Of a stretch of DNA of 64,000 bases, positions 1 through 12,141 are shown piece by piece. The DNA lies in assembly GCA_018266915.1 (NCBI GenBank), contig JAFDZM010000017.1, forward strand, positions 52,639 through 116,638, given 5' to 3'. Position 1 is the stretch's first letter. The number at the start of each line of letters is the position of its first letter. This stretch comes from Bacteroidota bacterium (GTDB lineage Bacteria > Bacteroidota > Bacteroidia > Sphingobacteriales > Sphingobacteriaceae). The notes beneath the pieces are model-generated. The model had not been told where the DNA came from. It did no database searches and saw nothing but the letters and a program-made list of their open reading frames with translations. The position numbers and the translations under genes were made by a program.

Positions 1-1621
1 CTTCCGTCTTGACCCGGTTAGAAGGCAAGCCCATTTTTAGCTGATCGTAAAGGTCTTTCACTGGATCGTTCGTGTTTATTTTATAACGCTCATAACTTTC
101 AACCAGTTGATACCAAGATGCCCAGGCGGCAACTGGCTCAGGCTCTAATCCGGTATAATGCATGTGATGACGCCCGATAACAAAATATTGAACTTTACTA
201 ATTTCTTGATGTACAGGGTCAAATTTGAGCTTCTTTAATACACCGGTTTGGGGTGTTATCGCTACCCACTCCTGCATTTTTTTAAGCCAGGTCTCTGAAG
301 CGTTGTAGGCTTCGGAAATCCTGTTGCGCCGCTCTTTCAATGATGTGAAAAACATGTCTTGCCATTTGAGCTGAAACAAACCCAAAGTCTTTGTTTTAGT
401 ATCGTAGATTGCTGCATCAATATCTGTATGCAACCCAGGAAGTTTGATTTCTATTTCGCCCTTTGCTGTTAAAAAGCGCTCACCCTTAAAGTATTGATAC
501 AAATCTGTCCGGAACCGTGCTTCACGCCGGGTTACAGCTTTGTCATAATCTGGACGGTATCTTCTTTTTAACTCCCTTTTAAGAAAATCGACACCCCCTC
601 CGAGAGCACCATAGGTAATCCTGGTCAATTGATCATCCGCTATGCTGATATAAGGCGGTAAATCACTCCCTTTCATGGAAGTATAGTCGTCTACATTGTC
701 TTTATCTAGCGTTAAGCAAGCAAAGATCTGTTTAACATTCGCCAAAGGGAGGCGTGTAATAGCGGCGAAATCTTCTAATGTCCGGTCTTTGTGCCAGGTA
801 TAAACGGAGATATCACGGAGATCAACTTTCGGAAACCGTTCTAAAGCCACGAGACAATAGCCCAAATGTTTAAGAGCAACACCGGTGACTGCTTTTAGGA
901 CGTCTAAATATTGTTGATATGGAATTTCTCCAAATTTGTCGTCAGCTCCAAAATCTTCGAAAGCTTTTTGTTTAATAAAATGATAATAACCAAGATCTGA
1001 AAAGTACTTGTCGACATCTGGCGTGGTTTGATAGGCGATAAATTTACCGGCTATGATACTCAAGCCAGAATTCGCGATCATTTGCTTTCGAATAGCTTTG
1101 AATTTTGCAGTTACCCGTTGACGACCGCCTTGATTTTGCCGTTCAATCATATTTTGGACGTAGTTATAACTAGCCCGGTCGTAACCTTCCTTGTCGGGAA
1201 TGTCGTGTGAAAACTTTAGGCTAAAAATATTTGGCGCAGTTTCTTCAATACTTAGTAAATTTAAGTAGGCGGCAAAATTAAAACGGTTCACACGCTCCAG
1301 ATCTCCAGTCCAGCCAAGCAGATGTGCTGCCCATGTTCTTTGCTCTTCGGTGGAAGAGTAAGTAAGCTGTGCCTGAAGAGCGTCGATATGTTTCAAATAA
1401 TACGATGCAAGGCTCACCCATGCAAAACGAATGCTTTCAAAATAAACAGCTTCCTGGATAGTTCCAGTTTTACCTAAAAAGCCTTTGATGAACGCACTGT
1501 CCAAATGACGCAAAATTTCTATCAAATCAAGATAAGCCTGATCACGTGAAACCAGTTCTTCCCGTGCCCTTTTCAATTCCTTCTCGACCAGTGTGTTAAG
1601 CTTCTCAAGCGTCTTGTCCAT
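1..1621 (-). CDS. Large hypothetical protein (>540 aa, runs off window edge) with C-terminal PD-(D/E)xK-like nuclease motif
   Basis: Not in the ORF track. Manually translated from ATG at 1621 (MDKTLEKLNTLVEKELKRAREEL...) with no in-frame stop to position 1. Contains ...REARFR...HTDIDAAIYD...LFQLKWQD. Overlaps the vsr 3' end by 17 nt. Confidence 0.8.
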   Translation of the reverse strand, partial: MDKTLEKLNTLVEKELKRAREELVSRDQAYLDLIEILRHLDSAFIKGFLGKTGTIQEAVYFESIRFAWVSLASYYLKHIDALQAQLTYSSTEEQRTWAAHLLGWTGDLERVNRFNFAAYLNLLSIEETAPNIFSLKFSHDIPDKEGYDRASYNYVQNMIERQNQGGRQRVTAKFKAIRKQMIANSGLSIIAGKFIAYQTTPDVDKYFSDLGYYHFIKQKAFEDFGADDKFGEIPYQQYLDVLKAVTGVALKHLGYCLVALERFPKVDLRDISVYTWHKDRTLEDFAAITRLPLANVKQIFACLTLDKDNVDDYTSMKGSDLPPYISIADDQLTRITYGALGGGVDFLKRELKRRYRPDYDKAVTRREARFRTDLYQYFKGERFLTAKGEIEIKLPGLHTDIDAAIYDTKTKTLGLFQLKWQDMFFTSLKERRNRISEAYNASETWLKKMQEWVAITPQTGVLKKLKFDPVHQEISKVQYFVIGRHHMHYTGLEPEPVAAWASWYQLVESYERYKINTNDPVKDLYDQLKMGLPSNRVKTE

Positions 1622-2036
1622 AGGATTTAATTTTATCGATTAATGATCGAAGCGTCTGTTCCAATCGCTGTTTGCCTTCTAATTCACACTCCCAAATAAT
1701 AATAACTTGCCATCCTGCCGCTGTCAATGCAGCTTGATGACTCAAATCCCTCTCGATGGTTTTAGAAAGTTTGGTTTGCCAAAATTTACTGTTGCTACTG
1801 GGAATACGCCCCTCGTTGCAATCAGCATGATAATGCCAAAAACAGCCATGTACGAATATTACCGTCTTATATTTAGGTAATACAATGTCTGGTTTTCCAG
1901 GTAAATCCTTACGGTGGATACGAAACCTGAAGCCAGCCGCGTGCAAATAAGATCTTAAATCAATTTCCGGTTTTGTGTTCTTAGACCGGATCCGGGACAT
2001 GACGTCACTTCGCTTGTCTTTTGACCAGATATCCAT
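1605..2036 (-). CDS. vsr: Very short patch repair endonuclease
   Basis: MDIWSKDKRSDVMSRIRSKNTKPE, DLPGKPDIV, FVHGCFWHYH, WECE motifs. Directly follows a C5 MTase. Confidence 0.95.
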   Translation of the reverse strand: MDIWSKDKRSDVMSRIRSKNTKPEIDLRSYLHAAGFRFRIHRKDLPGKPDIVLPKYKTVIFVHGCFWHYHADCNEGRIPSSNSKFWQTKLSKTIERDLSHQAALTAAGWQVIIIWECELEGKQRLEQTLRSLIDKIKSYGQDA

Positions 2037-3191
2037 TTAAAGGAGGGCATAGTAATTTTCTAAGGTACGCTTAATCTCATGGGCAATTAATTCTGCTTTC
2101 CGGGTTGGCACACCATTGCTGATCAACTTAAATTTATGCGACAGCGGAACACTTGCGGGCAACACGTATTCATCTGGCACCGATTGTATTTTCAACGCTT
2201 CTCTCACGGTTAGCCGCCGGGCCTCGGTTGGATGCAGGTGCACCTCGTTATTGCCGTAGGCAACGGTTGGACTGTAACGGTACCGGTGCAGCCTTTTAAA
2301 CGATTTTCGATTGGTATCGCCCTCATCGATCCTTAAAAATTTGTCGGATTTTGGATTAAAGCATTCCCCTTGGTTCGGAGAGTCACTGGTGATCGTGTTG
2401 AATGCATTAATGACTTGTAATACACTCAATTCTTTCGGAATCCGGTCCACATCTGTCTGAATAATATCGGAGCCGAAAAGCCATTTCCCTGGCCAAGGGT
2501 TCTGTTTGGGCTTGTCATATATTTTCCCAGGCCAGTTAAAAACTAGTTCGTCAGGGTTTTCCACCCACATAGTTTGCTTGCCTTTGTAGCCAGCAGCTTC
2601 TAAGCGGTTAACAATTTCCCTTTTAAAACCCACTAATGTCAATCTCGACCGGTCTTGCGGCACTCCATATTCTAGCGCGTTCAAAATATCATACCATACT
2701 ACATAATCTTCCGCACCTAACATTTTTACCAGATCCATGAACGCCTTATTATGCTCTCGGGTATTAAATAAGCCTGGTACGTTTTCAAAGAAGATGAACG
2801 CTGGATCTACTTTTTTTACAATTTCGAAATAGCTGTATATCAACTTACCTCTGGCGCCGTTATGTCCTGCGTTTGCTCCACCCACAGAGTAATCCTGGCA
2901 GGGGGGGCCACCAATAATTCCGGCTACTCCCTGGTTTTTTTGCTTAAGGGTGTCGAGGATTTCCTTCTTTGATGCGTCCAAAGCGCCTTCCATTACATGA
3001 TAGGTGCCATGTTTTTTCTCATCAAAAACTTTACTGTAGTAACTGCGCAGCCCTTCGTTATATGCTTCTATGAAAAATGGATTGATTTCCACTGCCTGGT
3101 TGATGGAAAAGCCCTGGTTTAAGAAACCAAGATCCAAAAACCCGCCACCGGAAAATAAGGATAATAAATTAAAATTTTTAGGGTTGCTCAT
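2037..3191 (-). CDS. DNA (cytosine-5)-methyltransferase
   Basis: Motif I LFSGGG, catalytic GGPPCQ, ENV, QDRSR, RRLTVRE, GNGVP-like motif X (SNGVP). Confidence 0.95.
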   Translation of the reverse strand: MSNPKNFNLLSLFSGGGFLDLGFLNQGFSINQAVEINPFFIEAYNEGLRSYYSKVFDEKKHGTYHVMEGALDASKKEILDTLKQKNQGVAGIIGGPPCQDYSVGGANAGHNGARGKLIYSYFEIVKKVDPAFIFFENVPGLFNTREHNKAFMDLVKMLGAEDYVVWYDILNALEYGVPQDRSRLTLVGFKREIVNRLEAAGYKGKQTMWVENPDELVFNWPGKIYDKPKQNPWPGKWLFGSDIIQTDVDRIPKELSVLQVINAFNTITSDSPNQGECFNPKSDKFLRIDEGDTNRKSFKRLHRYRYSPTVAYGNNEVHLHPTEARRLTVREALKIQSVPDEYVLPASVPLSHKFKLISNGVPTRKAELIAHEIKRTLENYYALL

Positions 3192-5559
3192 TAATAGTAT
3201 TTTCTAATGGTTGGACATAGTCCAGTATTCCGGTATCCCGGTCAAGTTTAATATGCCAGTCTTTTGCATCGATAACGATACCGTGTTCAAAATGCTCCAA
3301 GGGTATTTTGGCATATTTGGCTCCTTTAAAAAGATCAAACATGTCCTCTTGGTCCGAAAGGTGGTATTGGCTTCCCGCGGGCAATTCGCCTGGCTGCAAC
3401 GTCAATAGCTCAGCGAGCGATAACTCATCTTTGCCTTTGAAAAACTTCTTGGTTATCTCATTATAAAATGGGAAACAGATGTCTACCGTGGGAACACCCT
3501 CCAACCATCGCTTTTTAAACATGATGGTCGAATGTTCTATTTCCGGTTTGTTCAGAATAATTTCATCTATTTTGATTCGTTGAAAAAGGTTCTGGAATTT
3601 TTCTGGAATGATCGGCCTTAGGGTAGATACCGGTAAGACAAGCGGTAATTTTTCTATTGTCCGGTTCTTTTCACGGTTGCCCGTCAACTGCACCCATGCA
3701 TTGTAGTCTGACGAAATCTCGTTAAGCGCGTCGTGAAACCCACAGCATACCTGGCCGGTGATAGGTTTTCTATTGTATAATGAAATGGTATTCAGTCCCT
3801 TACGGGTTTTGTGCTCCCAATAACGTTGCAGGAAATAATCTTTAAATTGCCCCTTAAGGCGGCTCAGACGCTTGACCGGGAACGTGGTGGTACCATCTGT
3901 TTGTTGTAACTCCAGCCGGTAACTTAAGTCAGCCGCCAAGATTTCCTCACCAATGCTTTCATCTACCAGGAACTTCATGATTTTTACCTTCCCATCAAGT
4001 TCTTCAATTAGTTTTGGATAATACCGGCCCCACATCACAGGCAATGATCTTGTCGCTGTGCTGCTCAACGTGCTGCCGCTTTTATATTGTGCAACTCCGT
4101 CCGGGTTGAGGGTGCATAAATCCAAAACACGGAAATCAATAGTGCTTCGTTTGTTAAACGCGATCTCCAGCTTACCATATTGTTCCTCATGGTGAAAATA
4201 ATTCAACGCCAGACCAAATTCCGTGTCATGCTTTTTGTCATCTAAAGGCTTTGCAACAAAGTGGCACTGCACCAACTCCGCTAGCTTCTCCTTGCGTGAA
4301 ATACTTCGTCCATCTTCCCTCACGATCAAATCGCAATCCTGTCCTGTAAGTATAAAAATCCCTTTATCTCCGATTTGGTAAATGTCACCAGGGGCAGGGG
4401 GGTAATATAATTTGTTAACGGCATTATTAAACAATTCGAAATTGCTTAACTCTTGCAGCTCTTTTCTGAAATCCTCTGCAAGTATAGGTCCGTCCACTGG
4501 TAAATATGTTTCGTTGATCAAACTTGTCAATCCACTAATAAACTGGTAGTCCAGGGTATTTCCGGCAGGTGTAGTCAGCTTATCATAAATTTTCTTTTGT
4601 ACCAGCAAGTCAAACCATTGCTCCACCGTCCTGAATACCGTAGTACCCTCAGCATGGGCCATTTCGGCTAGATATAAAATGTTGCTTTGCCCGGAATCTA
4701 CAACCAACTGTTTTGCTGTTTTCAGTCCTTCTTTTTTAACTTTAAATATCTGATCAAAAAAGCTGGCATACGCGCAAATAGCCAAGCCGCCGGCAACGAG
4801 TTCGACCGCACTGGAACCATCATTCGGGGCAGGTTTCTGTATTTCAAAATGTAAATACTCTTGTACTCTTATATTGGGGTTGTTGCCAGCATCAGCACGG
4901 GATGTAAACAGTATGCTAAAAAAAGTATCAATGCCGTTAGCACGGTCGCGTAAACTAGTGATCAAATCACGGCCATTATTGCTACCCAATATCTTGTCCA
5001 CAATAAATAAAAAATACTTATGTGGCAACCGGTCTAACGTAAAACGCAGGTCTTCTTCAAATTCATTGAAGGCATCACCATGAAGCTGGCGATAGATCTT
5101 AACTGATTTCCGTGGATTATATTGATTAAGTATGTCAATGAACGGCTGATAGATTACAGCGCCTGAAAACTCTGCAAGTCCCGTATTCATAGCCAACGCA
5201 CTAATTGCTTCTTTATGCGGTCCTATTAAGGAAACAAATGTTTCAGCAAATACGGCAAGGGCTTCATGTCCTCCGTCACGCAAACGCTTTACGATTTCGC
5301 CAGCCTTAAACCAATCTATGTCTTCGGTTTGAAATGTAATGGCTAAAAAACCAGACCGGAGTCCGGTCAAGGCTGTAACCAATGCGCCGTCTAGCCTGAT
5401 TAGTTTGGTCAAGACCAGATCAAAATCGATATCATTGATGCACAAAAAGTGATAAATGATTTCTCCTGGATTTTCAATTGGTAGAAAATCATCATCCACG
5501 AACGCAACAAGGTCTGTTCGTAATTCATTAATTACGTTGGTAAAGTCAGGCTTGCTCAT
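3178..5559 (-). CDS. Receiver-domain protein associated with MORC/R-M clusters (receiver interrupted by insertion; long C-terminal extension)
   Basis: VAFVDDD (res 18-24), FIVD188, LFT219, EIQK242. Later PGDIY...LTGQDCDL motif. Overlaps both neighbours. Confidence 0.7.
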   Translation of the reverse strand: MSKPDFTNVINELRTDLVAFVDDDFLPIENPGEIIYHFLCINDIDFDLVLTKLIRLDGALVTALTGLRSGFLAITFQTEDIDWFKAGEIVKRLRDGGHEALAVFAETFVSLIGPHKEAISALAMNTGLAEFSGAVIYQPFIDILNQYNPRKSVKIYRQLHGDAFNEFEEDLRFTLDRLPHKYFLFIVDKILGSNNGRDLITSLRDRANGIDTFFSILFTSRADAGNNPNIRVQEYLHFEIQKPAPNDGSSAVELVAGGLAICAYASFFDQIFKVKKEGLKTAKQLVVDSGQSNILYLAEMAHAEGTTVFRTVEQWFDLLVQKKIYDKLTTPAGNTLDYQFISGLTSLINETYLPVDGPILAEDFRKELQELSNFELFNNAVNKLYYPPAPGDIYQIGDKGIFILTGQDCDLIVREDGRSISRKEKLAELVQCHFVAKPLDDKKHDTEFGLALNYFHHEEQYGKLEIAFNKRSTIDFRVLDLCTLNPDGVAQYKSGSTLSSTATRSLPVMWGRYYPKLIEELDGKVKIMKFLVDESIGEEILAADLSYRLELQQTDGTTTFPVKRLSRLKGQFKDYFLQRYWEHKTRKGLNTISLYNRKPITGQVCCGFHDALNEISSDYNAWVQLTGNREKNRTIEKLPLVLPVSTLRPIIPEKFQNLFQRIKIDEIILNKPEIEHSTIMFKKRWLEGVPTVDICFPFYNEITKKFFKGKDELSLAELLTLQPGELPAGSQYHLSDQEDMFDLFKGAKYAKIPLEHFEHGIVIDAKDWHIKLDRDTGILDYVQPLENTINEQP

Positions 5560-8125
5560 CGTTCTGTATACTGATCGAAAATATATAGCGGTTGCCCTGG
5601 CTGTTCAAGTCGGGTAGCAGGTTAATGCTTCCACCGAATGATTCTAATAAGTTTTTGACGATGTACAAGCCCATGCCACGCCCGTTCTCTTTACCGGATT
5701 TAAAGGGATGGAACAAGGTATATTGCAAATCGTCCTGGACGCCAGTGCCAGAATCGTAATAATTCACCGTGTAATCGTCCACTTTTTCTATCCGGATGAA
5801 GTCCCGCCCATCCAGCTTGTAAGATTGATCGTAGGCGCTGCGCTTTTGCCGCTCACCAATCCAATGCAATGAATTGTCAATCAGATTATAAAATACATGA
5901 GTGAGCGTGCCTTTCGGAACGTACCATGTATAATCTTTCAAACCGTCATAGACAATCATGGTCTTGGAATCTTTTAAACGGGTATCGAGCCGCTTTTTAA
6001 ATCCTTCGAGCAAGGCGCCAAAATCTTCGTGTTCAAAGTCATCGCTGGTGCCTTGACGGATGAATGTACTCTCCAGGAAATTATAAAATACATCCAGTTC
6101 GGTTATGCGGGTATGTAAAAAATCCAGTTGGGCTGCCACCGGTTTAAGTTCTTCATTATAGCGCTTAACTTGGTTTTGATCAAATAGGTAATTCTTGAGA
6201 GAAGCGATATGTGCCTGGTAACCTTCACCAGATTTAGTGTTTAATAATATGGAATGTAACTCGTGGGTCATGACCTCAGTGATCAGACCGTTAGCCATCA
6301 GCTTATAATTATTATACGAATCTCTTTGCCGTTCTTCAATAACAGTAAGGGTTTCCTTCGCATTTTTTAACGTGGAAATACTGTTATTGATGCTGTCAGA
6401 TAACGAACTGTCTTGCCCTTCCAGCTCCAACAGAATCTTCCGTACCTTTTGGATACTATCGTCGCTGTTAAGATGGATGTTGTCTTTGATGTCTTTAAAA
6501 GCCGCTTGGAATACAGCGAGGCTTTTCAAGGTCTCTTGCAGTAGCGCTTCTGACTCGTCAACCTGTTGTTTAAGCTCTTTTGGTGTGTTATTACGCACCA
6601 ATCCTTCTTCTATTAATATGTCGCGCACCAGGTAGTAGGCAGAGGTGCTTAATTGATAAAAGTCATCATTGAAAATGGCTTGAACAATTCTTTTAAGCGC
6701 AATAGCATTTAGTGACTCAACCAGTTCCTGCCGGGAACTAATCTCTTTGATGAAGTTTTGGTAGAAATCATTAATCTTGATGTAACCAACTACGTTGCCA
6801 AGCTCAAATCTGAAGAATTGCTGGCCACGGGTACGCGCTTGCTGCAAACTTAACCAGTCACTCTCTTTATCGCCAAGATTGGCAATCCGGAACTTGTCCC
6901 TGTATAACTTGATCCCATTATGATAGTTCAAGAAATCACGGATCGCAGCCATATTGCCAGTTTTTTCAATTGCTCCTGTGGCTTTAGCTGAATTGATGGC
7001 CAGGTTTAGCCGGAAAGCCTCCCGGTGAAAGGCATAAACTTTCCCCTCAACTGGCATGATTTGTTCTATGGCTTGGCGCGCTTGAGACAGGCCCTGCTTT
7101 GATTCTAAATAATCCTCCAGTTTCATTTTTCTGGACAGGTTACTTTGCAAGCGGTCCTGGTATTTTTCTAGCAATGATTCATAAAATGCTGCGTCACGCT
7201 GCCGTTCTTTAAACAGGTTTTTTCCCAACAAACGTAAATGGATCATCTCAACATACCAGGGTTTAAGTTGTAATTCTAACTCCAGATATGATTTTCCGCC
7301 TTTGCGATTCAAACTAAAGGAATGTATCGTTTCGGCGACCTTAATGCTGTCATTATGAAACGAAGACTGAACATGCAAACCATTTAAAAAGAAATTGATT
7401 TTGAAATCGTCCTCTTCTTGTTCGAACGGCGAATACAAAAAGCTCACTGACGATTGCAGCTTTTCCTGCAAGTAAATTTCAGGCTCGCCAGGTTCTTCAA
7501 ACATACTTATTTGCTCCGGCCGTCTGTCGTCAATAAACTTACTGAAGTTTACGCCCCCGGTAAACCAAAGCCTGGTATAGGGCAGGGAGGTCAATTTTTT
7601 GATTCGTAACTCCGGCGCATCTTCGTCGAGATCTTTAGCGAATTTGCTCCAATTAACCGTAACCAGATTTAATAAATCTTTTTCTCCCTTGCTACTTGTT
7701 TCCACAAGCAACGTAGCTGCGAGTCGCTGGGATGATAAACGGCCCAAGCCTTTGTCGCCAAGGATCATTTTTTCAGTGCTGCCGTCATTTTCATCTTTTC
7801 GTTTCTGCTGTTCTTTTAAATCCGAACCTACCTTGAAAAATCCATTTTGCAACTCATTATAGTCCATTCCCTTTCCGTTATCCTCGATAATAATAACTGG
7901 AGCCTTGTTGGAAGCTGCTTTAACAGCAGCAAGTACGTCATCAGGCAGTGGGGTTAACAATTTTGCAACGTCTAACTTGTCGATAGATTCCAAAAAATGA
8001 ACATTTACTACAGTTGCTTTTGCATCATAGGCATTTTTGAGCAACTCAGTAAAAGCCACCTCATCTGATGTGATCAATTCGGTGCCTAATTGTGCTAAGA
8101 TCCGTGGACTATACTCAAACTTCAT
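5546..8125 (-). CDS. MORC-like GHKL ATPase fused to C-terminal histidine kinase
   Basis: N-terminal ELLKNAYDA, EDNGKGM, GDKGLGR. C-terminal VMTHEL (H-box), NLIDNS (N), DSGTGV (G1), GRGMGL (G2). Confidence 0.85.
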   Translation of the reverse strand: MKFEYSPRILAQLGTELITSDEVAFTELLKNAYDAKATVVNVHFLESIDKLDVAKLLTPLPDDVLAAVKAASNKAPVIIIEDNGKGMDYNELQNGFFKVGSDLKEQQKRKDENDGSTEKMILGDKGLGRLSSQRLAATLLVETSSKGEKDLLNLVTVNWSKFAKDLDEDAPELRIKKLTSLPYTRLWFTGGVNFSKFIDDRRPEQISMFEEPGEPEIYLQEKLQSSVSFLYSPFEQEEDDFKINFFLNGLHVQSSFHNDSIKVAETIHSFSLNRKGGKSYLELELQLKPWYVEMIHLRLLGKNLFKERQRDAAFYESLLEKYQDRLQSNLSRKMKLEDYLESKQGLSQARQAIEQIMPVEGKVYAFHREAFRLNLAINSAKATGAIEKTGNMAAIRDFLNYHNGIKLYRDKFRIANLGDKESDWLSLQQARTRGQQFFRFELGNVVGYIKINDFYQNFIKEISSRQELVESLNAIALKRIVQAIFNDDFYQLSTSAYYLVRDILIEEGLVRNNTPKELKQQVDESEALLQETLKSLAVFQAAFKDIKDNIHLNSDDSIQKVRKILLELEGQDSSLSDSINNSISTLKNAKETLTVIEERQRDSYNNYKLMANGLITEVMTHELHSILLNTKSGEGYQAHIASLKNYLFDQNQVKRYNEELKPVAAQLDFLHTRITELDVFYNFLESTFIRQGTSDDFEHEDFGALLEGFKKRLDTRLKDSKTMIVYDGLKDYTWYVPKGTLTHVFYNLIDNSLHWIGERQKRSAYDQSYKLDGRDFIRIEKVDDYTVNYYDSGTGVQDDLQYTLFHPFKSGKENGRGMGLYIVKNLLESFGGSINLLPDLNSQGNRYIFSISIQNDEQA

Positions 8126-8331
8126 TTATAAAAATATCTAAACAGGAAAAATTTTCTCCCGGTCAAAAACTGCCAATAAAATTATCAATTATTGCCTTTT
8201 CAGACGAATTGTAACGATCAGGCTTTTCGATAAGCTTAAGGCAAATATATTATTTTTTGTGAGGGAGCAGCCATCGTCGATTGCTATTTGAGCAATTGAT
8301 AAGCATGCTTTCCAGGCTAGTTCGTTTATAG

Positions 8332-9444
8332 TTATGATTTTGATGGAATTATTAAGAGGTTCTTATCCACGTCCTTCAATAATTGGTCATTTTTGTTAAT
8401 TAATGGGTCATACCAATCTGCCTTGTCATTGGCCCATAGCAACCATTCTTCATCATCCTTGTAATTGCTAACCGCGACCAGGTAATCACGGATCATTTGT
8501 GCATCTCGCCAGCGCCGGGCATCACCTAACAAATTCTTAAATGCACAGAGCTCCTGGGCTTTTCGTTCTGCTTCGTTTCGTATGGCTTGCTCTTCAGCTT
8601 CCCTCGCTTCCTGGGCTTTCCTGTTTTGATCCCAACAGTCATGTAATTCCTTAACTACCAACTCAAGTTTGGTGACAATCTTTAATAATTGATCTTCTAG
8701 CCTAAACTTCTTATTGTCTTTCCAATCAGCGCGATGATAACCATCGAAATGAAATGCGAGTATTCCAGTAGGTACAAAATCATATTCCGGCCAGGTTTTT
8801 CCGGTGGAGACTTTCTTCGTTATCTCACGCAGATTAATTCGAAGTTCAACCTTACGGATTGTTACATAAGTGAATCTGCCACGGAATTGTACATTGTAAC
8901 CTTTGAATTTAAAATATTTCAATAAAGTGTCCATGATCCGCAACGCCCTTGAAATATTACCTTGAGTTACTTTAATATCTAAGTTCGTATCCCAGGTAGA
9001 CTTCATAATACCCTGGTTCCGGTATTCATCTTGTTGATTGAGTGAGCGCTCTGCAGCAATAATTAATGGTTCTGGTTGTGTTAAATGCGCCGGCACACGT
9101 AATGAAATTCCTGGCGTTTCACTAATTTCTTTGGCAAGCTTTTGTTCGTCACTGTCTTCTGTTCTACTCTGGATTTCTTCTTCCTTTGGTAATATTAGAT
9201 TATCTCCATCTCGACGTTCAGGCAGTGGCGTTCGAGGTTCCGCCTTGCCAAAACGAAGTTTCATCCAATATCCAGTGCGGGGTAGCGGAATAGTATTGTC
9301 ATTACATATTTGTTTTAGCTGGTAAATTGTGATGGAATGTGTTTCAGCCACGGTGGAAAGAGGTGAAGTCCAGACCAAATTGTACAATTGAGTCCGGCTG
9401 AATTTGGCGATAATATTAAGCGATTTTGGCGAAGCAATTGACAT
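8332..9444 (-). CDS. Hypothetical mobile-element protein with N-terminal HTH-like region
   Basis: FSRTQLYNLVWTSPLSTVA...QICNDNTIPLPRTGYWMK, a signature I recognise from genes on integrative elements. Start moved to ATG 9444 (ORF track 9540). Confidence 0.55.
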   Translation of the reverse strand: MSIASPKSLNIIAKFSRTQLYNLVWTSPLSTVAETHSITIYQLKQICNDNTIPLPRTGYWMKLRFGKAEPRTPLPERRDGDNLILPKEEEIQSRTEDSDEQKLAKEISETPGISLRVPAHLTQPEPLIIAAERSLNQQDEYRNQGIMKSTWDTNLDIKVTQGNISRALRIMDTLLKYFKFKGYNVQFRGRFTYVTIRKVELRINLREITKKVSTGKTWPEYDFVPTGILAFHFDGYHRADWKDNKKFRLEDQLLKIVTKLELVVKELHDCWDQNRKAQEAREAEEQAIRNEAERKAQELCAFKNLLGDARRWRDAQMIRDYLVAVSNYKDDEEWLLWANDKADWYDPLINKNDQLLKDVDKNLLIIPSKS

Positions 9445-9556
9445 TTTTTTTAGCTTAAAGATGCGGTTATGACGCAAACTTACTTGTTTTATGCTATAGA
9501 ATAGTTGCAGCCCTTTCTGAATAAAATAATAGGTCATCACGTATTGGTTTATTAGC

Positions 9557-9564
9557 TAACTTTG
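9557..9564 (+). promoter_or_regulatory. Bacteroidota -7 promoter element
   Basis: TAACTTTG matches TAnnTTTG, upstream of the 9664 gene. Confidence 0.5.
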
Positions 9565-9663
9565 TAAAGCGGCCATTTTTACTTTACTGAATGCGGTTGT
9601 CACTTTAACCTTTCGAATCACCATTATTACGTTGCCTTCCTTACCCACAATATCTGACTACAA

Positions 9664-12141
9664 ATGGACTTTATCATTGAAGAACTAAAAGACGCCAAAG
9701 AGATACAGCGTCTTTCCATCCCAGCAAAAAGACTAAAAGAGAAACTTGCTCCCATTCCCAGCACTTTTGAAGCGTTGCGTCGCCGATGGTTCTGGGAGTT
9801 ATTGCAAAATGCGAGCGACTATAACGATCAGGTTAGTGTCCGGTTGGACCTTCATGAGGATAAAATTGTTTTTTCCCATAATGGCGCGCCATTCAAACCT
9901 ATCGATACCGAAAATCTGATTTCACCGGATTCCGGAAAGGATGACGAGGATATCAAGGCAAAAGACCCAATTGGTCAATTTGGAACTGGTTTTATATCGA
10001 CGCATGTGTTGTCTTCCGAAATAACGGTGTCAGGGGTAGTGGCTTCTCAAAAATATGCCGGTCAATACACGGGTATCCGGTTTACTCTCGACCGTAGCCA
10101 ATTTGAAAGTAAAGACGAGTTAATCAAATCTATCAACACGGCAGAGTCTCAACTTGAGAAAAACATTTATGCCGCCTCTTATATTCCCGGCTCCTATAAC
10201 ACTCAATTCAGCTATAACCTCACTAGGCCGTTTCCTAAGGTGGATGCTATGAATACTGTTGAAGAGGGTCTTAAAAATATCGATGAACTGCTGCCTTACA
10301 CAATGATATTCATGGCAAAGGTGCAAACCGTTGAAATTGTCAATCATGCCTACCCTAAATTTAATTATGCCCGGCAAGCAATATTCAAACGCGGAGAAAC
10401 CTCATTATCCGATTATCACATCATTCACAGCCCCTTTGATGAAAATAATAAACCCTTAGACAATATCAATTATCACTTTAAGGTTCAAAAAGAAAATGAC
10501 GCGACAGTTGTCGTTAGAGTCGGGGATAAGTTCGTTTTGCCATACCCGGCTTTCATAACTAAATTGTTCTGCTCGTTGCCAATGATAGGCTCAGAAAAAT
10601 TTTGCCTGCCATATGTTCTTAATTCGGCAAAATTTATTCCGGCAACTGAGCGACATAAAGTTGAACTTTCGGACAATGATACGGCAAATCGCAAAATATT
10701 AACCGATTCCGTTCTCGCTTTTAAATCTTTGATCGACACACTTGTATCTGATGGCTACGAAAACTTTTATCATCTATGCCATTTCGGCGAGCCGGGTGAT
10801 ACAAATCAAACTGTAAATAACTGGCTTAAGGATCAGGTGCTAAAGCCTATTCAAGCCAATCTTCTAGATCAGGCCATTATAACGAGTAAAGAAACGACCG
10901 GGGCGCTCAAACTCTCAGTTGCTACAATATCGTTCATCCCACGTGATGAATTTCAAGAAGAAAAATATACGAAATTGACTGACATTGTTGATGCCCTTAA
11001 AAGTGCGACCGTGCCACGCTTTGCCGACGTAATTTCCTGGTATAACAGTTTAGACTTTGTCAGATTTGCAGGCTTGAAGTTTACCATTGAAATGGTCCTC
11101 AAGCAAATCCATGAATGTGGCTCATTGGCTGCGCTTCAGGCGGTCCTGGGTGAAAGCCCGACGGCATGGCTTGTTAAAGTACATGCTTATTTAATATTAT
11201 ATAATGAGGTGCTTTTAGACCAGTATAAAATTATTCCTGACCAGGAAGGAAATCTCCACTTAAGAAGCGACGATATCAACTGGGATAATGATATTCCCGA
11301 TGATCTTAAAGAAATCTATCTGAAAATTACTGGTAAGTCATTCGGTAATATTTTATTGGATAAAGACTATGAAATTAATATGACTTTGCTTCCAGAAACG
11401 AAGCAAAAGGGCCCGGATGACATTGGACAAGAAATTGATAACGCATTTAAAAATTATACCGGGGATACCGGCAGTAAAAACTATCTGGATGCACTCCGAA
11501 AGCTTTTCAAATGGTTCAAAGATCACCATGCAGATGGCGGCGAAAACCTTAAAAAAACATTTGAATGGTTCTCACGGAAAAAACCGCAGTTATTCATGGA
11601 CACATTCAATGAAGAGGAAAAAGACAAGGCCTTTATTATTGTTCAAAGCGGAAAGCTGCAAAGTCTTGCAAAGCTTGCTGAGTCTGGAATCAGCGATGAA
11701 GAGATAAATTTATTGACAAATAATCTCGATAATGTTAAAAGCATTTTGGAATGGCTGTTGCAAAAAACTGATGATAAAACCCACGCCAACGCAGCCACTG
11801 GAGATACAGGTGAAGAAATCGTATTTGAGGAACTCAATAGAAAATTCGGAGGATTTAACAACACCCAGGTTATTTGGGCCAGCAGGGATAGAAATGAGCC
11901 CCGCTATGATTTTGAAATTATTAAGGATGGGAAAATTATAATTTACGTTGACGCAAAAACAACCAATCAAGGGACTGCCAATGCTGATTCCATTCCTTTT
12001 TTTGTTCGAAGGGCACAATGGGAGTTTTTGAAGGATGAGCGGGTTAGAAATAAGTATTTAGCTGCCCGTGTGACTATTTCGAATGAGGGAATAGGTATAG
12101 AATGGCTCGCATTAAACTTATTAAATATCGGGTTAATATAA
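9664..12141 (+). CDS. Sacsin/NOV-type GHKL ATPase with C-terminal DUF3883-like (PD-(D/E)xK) nuclease domain
   Basis: RWFWELLQNASD, FSHNGAPF, GQFGTGF. C-terminal GDTGEEIVFEEL...RYDFEI...YVDAKTT. Confidence 0.8.
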   Translation: MDFIIEELKDAKEIQRLSIPAKRLKEKLAPIPSTFEALRRRWFWELLQNASDYNDQVSVRLDLHEDKIVFSHNGAPFKPIDTENLISPDSGKDDEDIKAKDPIGQFGTGFISTHVLSSEITVSGVVASQKYAGQYTGIRFTLDRSQFESKDELIKSINTAESQLEKNIYAASYIPGSYNTQFSYNLTRPFPKVDAMNTVEEGLKNIDELLPYTMIFMAKVQTVEIVNHAYPKFNYARQAIFKRGETSLSDYHIIHSPFDENNKPLDNINYHFKVQKENDATVVVRVGDKFVLPYPAFITKLFCSLPMIGSEKFCLPYVLNSAKFIPATERHKVELSDNDTANRKILTDSVLAFKSLIDTLVSDGYENFYHLCHFGEPGDTNQTVNNWLKDQVLKPIQANLLDQAIITSKETTGALKLSVATISFIPRDEFQEEKYTKLTDIVDALKSATVPRFADVISWYNSLDFVRFAGLKFTIEMVLKQIHECGSLAALQAVLGESPTAWLVKVHAYLILYNEVLLDQYKIIPDQEGNLHLRSDDINWDNDIPDDLKEIYLKITGKSFGNILLDKDYEINMTLLPETKQKGPDDIGQEIDNAFKNYTGDTGSKNYLDALRKLFKWFKDHHADGGENLKKTFEWFSRKKPQLFMDTFNEEEKDKAFIIVQSGKLQSLAKLAESGISDEEINLLTNNLDNVKSILEWLLQKTDDKTHANAATGDTGEEIVFEELNRKFGGFNNTQVIWASRDRNEPRYDFEIIKDGKIIIYVDAKTTNQGTANADSIPFFVRRAQWEFLKDERVRNKYLAARVTISNEGIGIEWLALNLLNIGLI

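Follow-up and report, generated by a model that had tools for sequence, protein, structure and literature searches.

Which protein would act against foreign DNA in a methylation-linked operon that also encodes a histidine kinase and a receiver protein? This question is raised by five genes, here called A to E, at the left end of the window, by which we mean the whole stretch of 64,000 nt analysed from a Bacteroidota bacterium (GenBank assembly GCA_018266915.1, contig JAFDZM010000017.1, positions 52,639 to 116,638). A first-pass annotation of the same DNA, made from the letters alone, had assigned this part to the last gene of the run, E, as the restriction nuclease of a system switched by internal phosphotransfer. 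We found that A and B travel with a DNA methyltransferase gene, and that E is missing from most of the loci that hold them. Our reading, to which we give about an even chance, is that the locus is a methylation-linked defence operon resembling restriction-modification (R-M) systems, in which two recurrent modules share one C5-methyltransferase (protein C) and the triad A-B-C is the obligatory part.

Gene order and linkage across independent loci

The five genes form a co-directional run on the minus strand, as follows (coordinates from the open reading frame (ORF) list and direct translation).

5546..8125, minus strand: gene A, 859 aa
3178..5559, minus strand: gene B, 793 aa, a receiver plus a large uncharacterised C-terminal region
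2037..3191, minus strand: gene C, 384 aa, C5 cytosine DNA methyltransferase
1605..2036, minus strand: gene D, 143 aa, Vsr very-short-patch-repair endonuclease
1..1621, minus strand: gene E, 540 of 568 aa inside the window, with the C-terminal 28 aa beyond the window start (full-length protein, P0005)

Successive genes from A to E overlap by 14, 14, 0 (abutting) and 17 nt, which bears out the overlapping or abutting arrangement described in the first-pass annotation, and this junction pattern is the layout of a predicted translationally coupled operon. The same five-gene order recurs in L002 and L003, two loci of the sample described below, and the B/C overlap in L002 is likewise 14 nt. Such a recurrence of gene order in unrelated genomes is far beyond chance.

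We investigated the linkage of these genes in 16 independent loci selected as holding the A-B pair, which are distributed over Bacteroidota, Bacillota and one Rhizobium plasmid; genome contigs were scanned for the B family with a 17-sequence alignment. The sample comprised the present window, one SRA assembly and one metagenome contig; Flavobacterium suzhouense, Mucilaginibacter, Algoriphagus marinus, a Ferruginibacter metagenome-assembled genome, Chryseobacterium jejuense, Phaeocystidibacter marisrubri and Niabella yanshanensis; and Geosporobacter ferrireducens, two Bacillus spp., Bacillus inaquosorum, Ca. Enterococcus murrayae and a conjugative plasmid of Rhizobium etli. As a result, A and B were adjacent in 16/16 loci of this sample, and a DNA methyltransferase gene adjoined them in 16/16, so that the link to a methyltransferase proposed at first pass proved real. 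Fifteen loci have an enzyme of the Dcm type, with A-B-C or C-A-B as the gene order, and the Rhizobium plasmid has one of the N6_N4 type; the A-B pair is therefore not tied to 5-methylcytosine chemistry. Vsr was present in seven of the 16 loci and E in only three (the window, L002 and L003). From these counts, the unit under selection is the A-B-methyltransferase triad; D and E are candidate accessories, and the C-terminal domain of B is the candidate obligatory effector.

The smallest loci illustrate this point. In Phaeocystidibacter marisrubri (L099, 5790-14927), A-B-C stands alone, flanked on one side by a fragment of Mg_chelatase_C (138 aa) and on the other by a ChlI/Mg_chelatase gene (512 aa) of the same strand. 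This points to an islet of three genes that has split comM, which is known as a hot spot of integration. The triad also stands alone in Bacillus inaquosorum (L014), between rlmCD and an LXG toxin locus, a variable spot, and three loci have the order C-A-B without D or E. The view of E as the restriction nuclease of the system was not supported as stated: E accompanies A-B in three loci only, and the triad alone forms complete islets. In the Rhizobium etli plasmid pRetMIM1f (L018, NC_021911.1), positions 4123-9753 encode the N6_N4-type methyltransferase followed by A (828 aa) and B (586 aa). This region is unannotated in the plasmid table, and a caspase-like (Peptidase_C14) gene and a TPR gene adjoin it.

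Protein B: a receiver followed by a candidate effector

Protein B has three close homologues among 5.8 billion proteins; a search of 1.84 billion proteins gave 402 family representatives at E<=1e-3. It matched nothing in Pfam, NCBIfam, PADLOC or PHROGs. We list its parts as delimited from an AlphaFold2 model and from conservation in the family.

4825..5559, minus strand: receiver (REC) domain of B, aa ~1-245 (model secondary structure, Foldseek and conservation; codons checked)
3760..4431, minus strand: conserved beta-rich core of B, aa 377-600, mildly basic (isoelectric point, pI, 8.6), candidate effector
3181..3759, minus strand: variable beta-rich C-terminal domain of B, aa 601-793, the least conserved part (occupancy and identity by block)

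The model, built on 85 family members, had a predicted local distance difference test (pLDDT) score of 92.1, exceeding 90 over aa 1-220, and a predicted template modelling (pTM) score of 0.74. In it, the receiver strands end at the expected kinds of residue: beta1 leads to D22-D23-D24, beta3 to D188, beta4 to T219-S220 and beta5 to K242, and the (beta-alpha)5 fold is interrupted by a helical insert of about 115 aa (aa 31-145). Among the 85 members, D188 and K242 are conserved in 100%, S220 in 89% and T219 in 69%, with an acidic pair at 22-24. Foldseek searches against PDB and BFVD returned nearly exclusively receiver domains, including 6xvu_D (prob 0.99, TMt 0.54) and dozens of matches to CheY, DivK, PhoB and FixJ; the insert of 115 aa keeps their E-values weak (>=0.07), and the Pfam model Response_reg (PF00072) gave no match at E<=10. 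In the model, the N-terminus of B is a CheY-like receiver by both its fold and its catalytic quintet, and the receiver residues recognised at first pass, D188 among them, are those now supported by the family alignment.

That annotation had overlooked the roughly 550 conserved residues of B beyond the receiver. They begin with a 57-residue helix (aa 248-304) and include the beta-rich core, in which G391, D392, G406, Q407, C409, D410, R422, G488, R564, R567 and R586 are invariant or nearly so; the domain at aa 601-793 is missing from shorter family members (586-680 aa: L018, L016, L101). Since this region combines invariant acidic, Arg and Cys residues with a basic core, and since no other effector is found in 13 of the 16 loci, it looks like an enzyme or a nucleic-acid-binding domain, and on these sequence features it is a better candidate effector than E, to which B is not homologous. 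Readings of D392 and Q407xC409-D410 as part of a PD-(D/E)xK nuclease, a MazF-like barrel, a Cys-dependent enzyme or a TOPRIM domain were considered and set aside, as none agreed convincingly with the predicted strand order.

At residue 378 (window 4426-4428), the present B has Asn, compared with Asp in 92% of the 85 family members (consensus FExFDYxVN). The two closest relatives (P0002, P0003) share the Asn, and P0004 retains the Asp; this may be a clade-specific change at a candidate active-site residue. No relatives of B were found in viral contigs.

Protein A: a predicted dual-GHKL kinase

Protein A carries two ATP-binding modules of the GHKL class, matched by Pfam HATPase_c_3 (PF13589; aa 20-176, 2.8e-16) and HATPase_c (PF02518; aa 740-851, 6.4e-15).

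7598..8068, minus strand: N-terminal GHKL ATPase module of A, aa 20-176, with Bergerat motifs E27/N31/D34, D82-G84-G86 and G123-K125-G126-G128
6263..6265, minus strand: H621 of A, predicted phospho-accepting His of the H-box MTHEL (codon checked)
5573..5908, minus strand: histidine-kinase catalytic (CA) domain of A, aa 740-851 (boxes N, G1, F and G2 present)

We aligned 39 homologues with identities down to 23%. In this alignment, H621 and E622 of the H-box T620-H621-E622-L623 are invariant, as are the Bergerat ATP-binding motifs I-III of the HATPase_c_3-type module (E27/N31/D34, D82xGxG and G123xKGxG) and the kinase-module residues N747, N751, D791, G793, G795, F805, G815, G817 and G819. The H, N, G1, F and G2 boxes of two-component histidine kinases are thus all present, and the two GHKL modules and the THEL H-box named in the first-pass annotation were confirmed. 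No HisKA-type model of Pfam matched A. Among NCBIfam models, the C-terminal part matched sensor histidine kinases, and the LvrB match, spanning aa 587-837, covers the His helix. A, putatively a soluble protein, is predicted to start with a MORC/paraMORC-type ATPase and a basic middle region; a coiled coil comes next, followed by the DHp H-box and, last, the catalytic domain of a histidine kinase.

Among named families, the N-terminal module is nearest to the BbrUII/HgiDII restriction enzymes, namely to their GHKL domain (NF050001, 1.7e-15, aa 69-150), and PADLOC gave a weak generic match to a Type II restriction enzyme (REase_II) over the GHKL domain only. We label the module "MORC/paraMORC-like", as its sequence does not establish it as MORC in the strict sense. 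A has at least 267 homologues; among the 120 listed, all those with precomputed Pfam domains carry PF13589, and nearly all of these also carry PF02518. In phage records, relatives of A were limited to GHKL-domain matches.

Proteins C and D

The remaining core gene and its neighbour belong to well-known families. Protein C matched Pfam DNA_methylase (PF00145; 2.8e-52, 178.6 bits, cutoff 22) and TIGR00675 (1.7e-42, 146 bits, cutoff 100.65), and its translation contains the motifs GGPPCQ, FENVPG, QDRSR (QxRxR) and a GNGVP-type motif, with the catalytic PCQ and ENV intact. Protein D matched PF03852 (4.1e-34, 116.7 bits) and TIGR00632 (7.5e-43, 145.6 bits, cutoff 97.85). By these family models, C is unambiguously assigned as a C5-methyltransferase and D as a Vsr endonuclease. 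PADLOC labelled C as MTase_II or DruM-like, with a match to the Druantia DruM2 model at 3.5e-116. Assignment of the operon to Druantia type II was nevertheless rejected; DruE, DruF and DruG are needed for it, and A, B and E match no Druantia protein.

Protein E: a predicted nuclease module with changing partners

Protein E had no family match and no sequence-level match in PDB. Its AlphaFold2 model (pLDDT 90.2, pTM 0.90) combines a helical N-terminal region with a core that is probably of the PD-(D/E)xK type.

122..526, minus strand: predicted nuclease core of E, aa ~366-500, basic (pI 9.3), with E367, D400, D402, D407 and Q417-L418-K419 (codons checked)

These residues are invariant in 42 E homologues. 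In the model they are placed on one helix and on consecutive strands, an arrangement resembling that of PD-(D/E)xK nucleases; the QLK motif singled out in the first-pass annotation is Q417-L418-K419. The top Foldseek match of E was Upx (9wuf; 8.6e-5, prob 1.0, TM-score 0.33, identity 11%), followed by weak matches to R2 endonuclease, Bax1, MunI and BbvCI. Upx is an anti-phage nuclease in which a single protein acts alone; its 1,272 aa include a middle domain besides the two nuclease halves, and its catalytic residues are on beta2 and beta3 (Zhou et al. 2026, PMC13099982). Both proteins join a large helical region to a PD-(D/E)xK core, a predicted one in E, but E, at 568 aa, corresponds to about one half of Upx and has QxK where Upx has ExK. 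E can be described as a small, free-standing relative of Upx, and the clusters of cytosine-methylase and GHKL genes that it accompanies are of four kinds or more.

We analysed these neighbourhoods in metagenome contigs, where a scan gave 207 confirmed relatives of E; 80 loci were fetched, and 35 of them were non-redundant with at least three ORFs on each side. Within six genes of E, Dcm was found in 16 of the 35 loci and Vsr in 11, and any of Dcm, Vsr or an A-like GHKL protein in 18. The GHKL partners of E were of four kinds. Bona fide pairs of a HEF_HK with a Response_reg_2 protein stand beside E in L044 and L045. Dual-GHKL kinases with a bare receiver, which has no effector domain, stand beside it in L025 and L048 (141-aa REC-like protein) and in L019 (200-aa canonical REC); E is therefore the most plausible output in those three loci. 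HgiDII-like single GHKL proteins are its neighbours in L004 and L051 (NF050001, 3e-64), and in L077, L022, L071 and L097 E-family genes adjoin GHKL/Dcm/Vsr clusters of the MORC/paraMORC R-M type. E thus behaves as a mobile module, a predicted nuclease that has become part of cytosine-methylase/GHKL clusters time and again, and here it shares the methylase with A-B-C. The first-pass annotation had held that its reading would fail if the last ORF were unlinked in homologous clusters. On this point, E turned out to be dispensable for the A-B-C unit, but it is no random neighbour, recurring as it does beside Dcm/Vsr/GHKL clusters; it is neither unlinked nor obligatory.

Some details of these loci may be added. 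The bare receivers are encoded at 2357-2782 (L025), 1034-1459 (L048) and 7609-8211 (L019), and their kinases adjoin Dcm and E. In L051, the gene at 5274-6914, directly upstream of the E-family gene, encodes an HgiDII-like GHKL protein with a C-terminal TIGR02391 ("hypoth_ymh") domain (7.6e-13); elsewhere on that contig there is a second dual-GHKL kinase, accompanied by Dcm and Vsr. In the HEF_HK/Response_reg_2 locus L044, a DUF3427-HNH protein (7593-8348) is encoded between the receiver protein and the E-family nuclease, so that this locus has two different nucleases besides Vsr.

Genomic surroundings

Upstream of A, a gap of 206 nt separates the operon from an unrelated ORF of 402 aa (8332-9540, minus strand), which lies between the operon and a TmtA homologue and has a helical stretch rich in Glu, Lys and Ala. 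It matched nothing in Pfam, NCBIfam, PADLOC or PHROGs and has no counterpart in any related locus, and it was rejected as an operon member on these grounds; it may be an orphan gene of the defence island or not a gene at all. At 9664-12141 on the plus strand, divergent from the operon, an 825-aa protein is encoded that is homologous to TmtA of the Tiamat system (PADLOC PDLC03967, 2.4e-117). Its N-terminus is a sacsin-type GHKL ATP-binding domain (NF047352, 5.9e-19), the third GHKL-type module within 12 kb. Since this homologue adjoins the operon, the locus lies in a defence island, and since housekeeping genes follow from about 12.7 kb onward, the operon stands at the right end of this island, which extends leftward out of the window.

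In the two closest relatives of the operon, L002 (8687-15415) and the P0006 contig, three genes on the opposite strand lie directly downstream of E. Two of them encode a PDDEXK_1 nuclease of ~360 aa and a DEAD/Helicase_C protein of ~2,000 aa. The other encodes, in L002 only, an E paralogue of 597 aa with 24% identity, in whose place the P0006 contig has an unclassified 242-aa gene. By analogy, the same three opposite-strand genes probably lie just past the left edge of the window.

In the composition of the 64-kb window, CTAG is depleted, which is a universal pattern, and GGCC is mildly under-represented (312 observed against 415 expected on both strands, ratio 0.75). CCGG is over-represented across positions 1-64000. 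No tRNA genes were found in the whole 64,000-nt window, and scanning for promoters and terminators was uninformative.

Proposed mechanism and alternative explanations

Two steps of the mechanism that we propose are established functions of the families concerned: C methylates cytosines at its target site and so marks self DNA, and D nicks the T:G mismatches that arise from deamination of 5-methylcytosine, repairing the mutational cost of the mark. The others are proposals of ours. Protein A would be a dimeric, putatively soluble kinase, whose MORC/MutL-like GHKL ATPase would engage DNA as the sensor, and a coiled coil of ~130 aa would link this ATPase to the helix bundle that contains H621 and to the domain in which the kinase binds ATP. 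Upon meeting unmarked DNA or another infection cue, A would autophosphorylate H621 and pass the phosphate to D188 of B. The phosphorylated receiver would then, via the long helix at aa 248-304, switch on the conserved C-terminal domain of B against the invading DNA, with cleavage as the leading guess. Where present, E would add DNA degradation; its recurrent neighbours suggest that the GHKL module probably drives it, much as MutH and Vsr are driven by MutL. The specific version of this proposal, in which the ~550-aa C-terminal region of B is a phosphorylation-gated, DNA-targeting effector of a kind not seen before and A-B-C a self-contained immune system whose MORC-like clamp reads methylation and signals through a His-to-Asp relay, is tentative, and we hold it to be clearly more doubtful than the operon reading as a whole.

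Several observations weigh against the operon reading. Foldseek searches of PDB and BFVD found no known nuclease or DNA-binding fold in the C-terminal ~550 aa of B, a profile search found no PDB sequence match, and no canonical nuclease motif was recognised there; it is therefore conceivable that B is a regulator, or that the system works by some means other than cleavage. Furthermore, the models of the kinase-receiver systems compared below failed to match: HEF_HK (PF19191) had no match to A at E<=10 and is absent from the precomputed Pfam domains of the 120 listed A homologues, and Response_reg_2 (PF19192) matched neither B, nor its three close homologues, nor 52 family representatives. Palindrome avoidance in the window was uninformative and gave no basis to name the target site of C. 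For the A-B family, restriction, phosphotransfer and the methylation target are features that we infer.

We weighed these points together with four other explanations. That E is the restriction endonuclease, switched on by the A-to-B phosphorelay with B as only an adaptor or regulator, would agree with the fact that in no protein of the operon but E can the active site and fold of a nuclease be recognised, with the 17-nt overlap of its gene and the Vsr gene, and with the bare-receiver loci (L025/L048, L019) where E could be the output, as well as the HEF_HK/Response_reg_2 loci L044 and L045. We nevertheless consider it unlikely: E is missing from 13 of the 16 A-B-methyltransferase loci, complete three-gene islets among them, none of the 80 metagenomic E loci has a B-family protein, and an adaptor role leaves some 550 conserved residues of B, with their invariant polar positions, unexplained. 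Somewhat less likely again, in our view, is a regulatory two-component pair, in which A and B would be the post-translational or transcriptional analogue of a controller (C) protein of R-M systems that sets the level or timing of methylation and restriction, for example once the genes have reached a new host, with B as a DNA-binding regulator instead of an effector. Most response regulators are transcription factors, the core of B is basic and shows no recognisable nuclease motif, and a signalling role in the control of R-M systems was proposed for the related architecture by Bellieny-Rabelo, Pretorius & Moleleki (2021; PMC8011034). Against this stand the failure to detect a helix-turn-helix or other DNA-binding family in B or 52 relatives, the position of the locus in a defence island, and the fact that 13 of the 16 loci offer only a methyltransferase to regulate, a regulator pair of 1,650 aa being hard to rationalise for an orphan methylase.

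The operon might also be two independent systems side by side, namely a Type II-like Dcm-Vsr-nuclease set (C-D-E) and an unrelated A-B signalling pair. Dcm-Vsr-E indeed occurs without A or B in several metagenomic loci (L075-L081, L089/L090, L022, L097). This explanation is improbable given that A-B adjoins a methyltransferase throughout the 16 loci and was never seen alone, that B and C overlap by 14 nt both here and in L002, and that the C-A-B loci dispense with D and E. Most improbable of all appears to us a non-defensive epigenetic or repair module, in which a MutL-like ATPase aids Vsr at C-methylated sites and the phosphorelay reports DNA status. The stimulation of Vsr by MutL in E. coli (discussed in Iyer 2008) and the MutL/MORC-like N-terminal module of A would fit such a role, but Vsr is missing from nine of the 16 loci, the distribution is patchy and island-like, with one copy splitting comM and one on a conjugative plasmid, and a Tiamat homologue is a neighbour.

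What the defence reading would mean can be put briefly. R-M systems are thought to tell self from foreign DNA by direct recognition of sites. If the A-B-C reading is true, an ATP-driven DNA clamp coupled to a His-Asp phosphorelay would add a signalling layer to epigenetic immunity, and A-B-C would be the first system of the restriction type in which a two-component relay gates the distinction of self from non-self. The kinase activity would then also offer a testable biochemical read-out for prokaryotic MORC-type ATPases. The parts list of the locus is corrected: its core is the three genes A-B-C, the candidate effector is B, and E is counted among the accessories.

Comparison with known systems

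Stand-alone Dcm and Vsr are the simplest comparison. C and D are clear members of both families, and their genes abut (C ends at 2037 and D starts at 2036), but the E. coli Dcm-Vsr pair stands alone, without the kinase, receiver and extra nuclease of the present operon. The BbrUII/HgiDII enzymes (NF050001) share the N-terminal GHKL module, and close relatives of theirs adjoin E in L004 and L051. A differs from them in that it matches only ~80 residues of the 659-position model, at 57 bits against a 550-bit cutoff, and in that its C-terminal half is a histidine kinase, not the C-terminal region of that family. The MORC/paraMORC GHKL ATPases described in an R-M context (Iyer 2008) are likewise combined with Dcm, Vsr and nucleases of the restriction-endonuclease fold, and the logic proposed there, in which a separate nuclease is driven by the GHKL ATPase in the way that MutL acts on MutH and Vsr, is the one invoked above for E. 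Those operons are, however, without a histidine kinase or receiver (the word "receiver" never occurs in that work), and they usually include SF2 helicases, which the present operon lacks.

The only tested defensive two-component precedent that we found in the literature is Detocs, in which defence was lost in kinase-His and receiver-Asp mutants and effector domains could be swapped (Rousset et al., bioRxiv 10.1101/2023.01.24.525353). The statement of the first-pass annotation that no mechanistic study was known holds for the A-B family; Detocs is a defensive phosphorelay that has been tested. Detocs has in common with the predicted form of A-B a soluble histidine kinase and a receiver-effector fusion, a resemblance that is functional only. 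It differs in its TPR sensor, where A has a GHKL ATPase, in its stand-alone buffer receiver DtcB, in its effector, usually a PNP ATP-nucleosidase, in the lack of a methyltransferase, and in acting by abortive infection. The present operon does not belong to it: PADLOC gave no known-system match for A or B beyond the weak REase_II match, and no stand-alone receiver gene is present in the operon. DefensePredictor also lists an unvalidated HATPase+REC candidate.

In architecture, the systems nearest to A-B are those of Bellieny-Rabelo et al. (2021; PMC8011034), and the first-pass annotation was sound in citing a literature on MORC-kinase/receiver pairs near R-M genes. Their study, which is computational only, concerns "two-component-like" systems linked to paraMORC ATPases and C5-methyltransferases, and it reported proteins with HATPase_c_3, HEF_HK and HATPase_c domains encoded beside Response_reg_2 and a C5-methylase, often with Vsr. 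The A-B systems share HATPase_c_3, a His-containing helix pair and HATPase_c in one protein, putatively soluble in the case of A (the group 1 architecture, which A has, with H621-E622 invariant), a receiver-like neighbour whose loops carry long insertions and in which no further domain is known, and an adjacent C5-methyltransferase, often with Vsr. In addition, the bona fide members in L044 and L045 carry an adjoining E-family nuclease, as the present operon does. These members also served as positive controls, since with the same Pfam library the 970-aa protein of L044 matched PF19191 at 1.5e-20, and PF19192 was matched at 6e-21 and 1e-20 in L044 and L045. An hhalign comparison of the B family with three Response_reg_2 proteins gave E 0.019 and a probability of 2.4%, over the receiver strands only, and a jackhmmer search from a Response_reg_2 protein did not reach the B family. 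A motif GD[IV]F...CD is common to B and Response_reg_2 proteins and is a lead only. B is also longer than these proteins (793 against ~556 aa) and has an extra variable C-terminal domain, and the A-B lineage is found mainly in Bacteroidota and Bacillota, unlike the described HEF_HK lineage, ~70% of which is from Proteobacteria. Since the design is the same and the Pfam models are unmatched, we treat A-B as a divergent sister lineage of the HEF_HK/Response_reg_2 systems, and by its predicted architecture A-B-C is a divergent version of a kind of system known so far from computational description.

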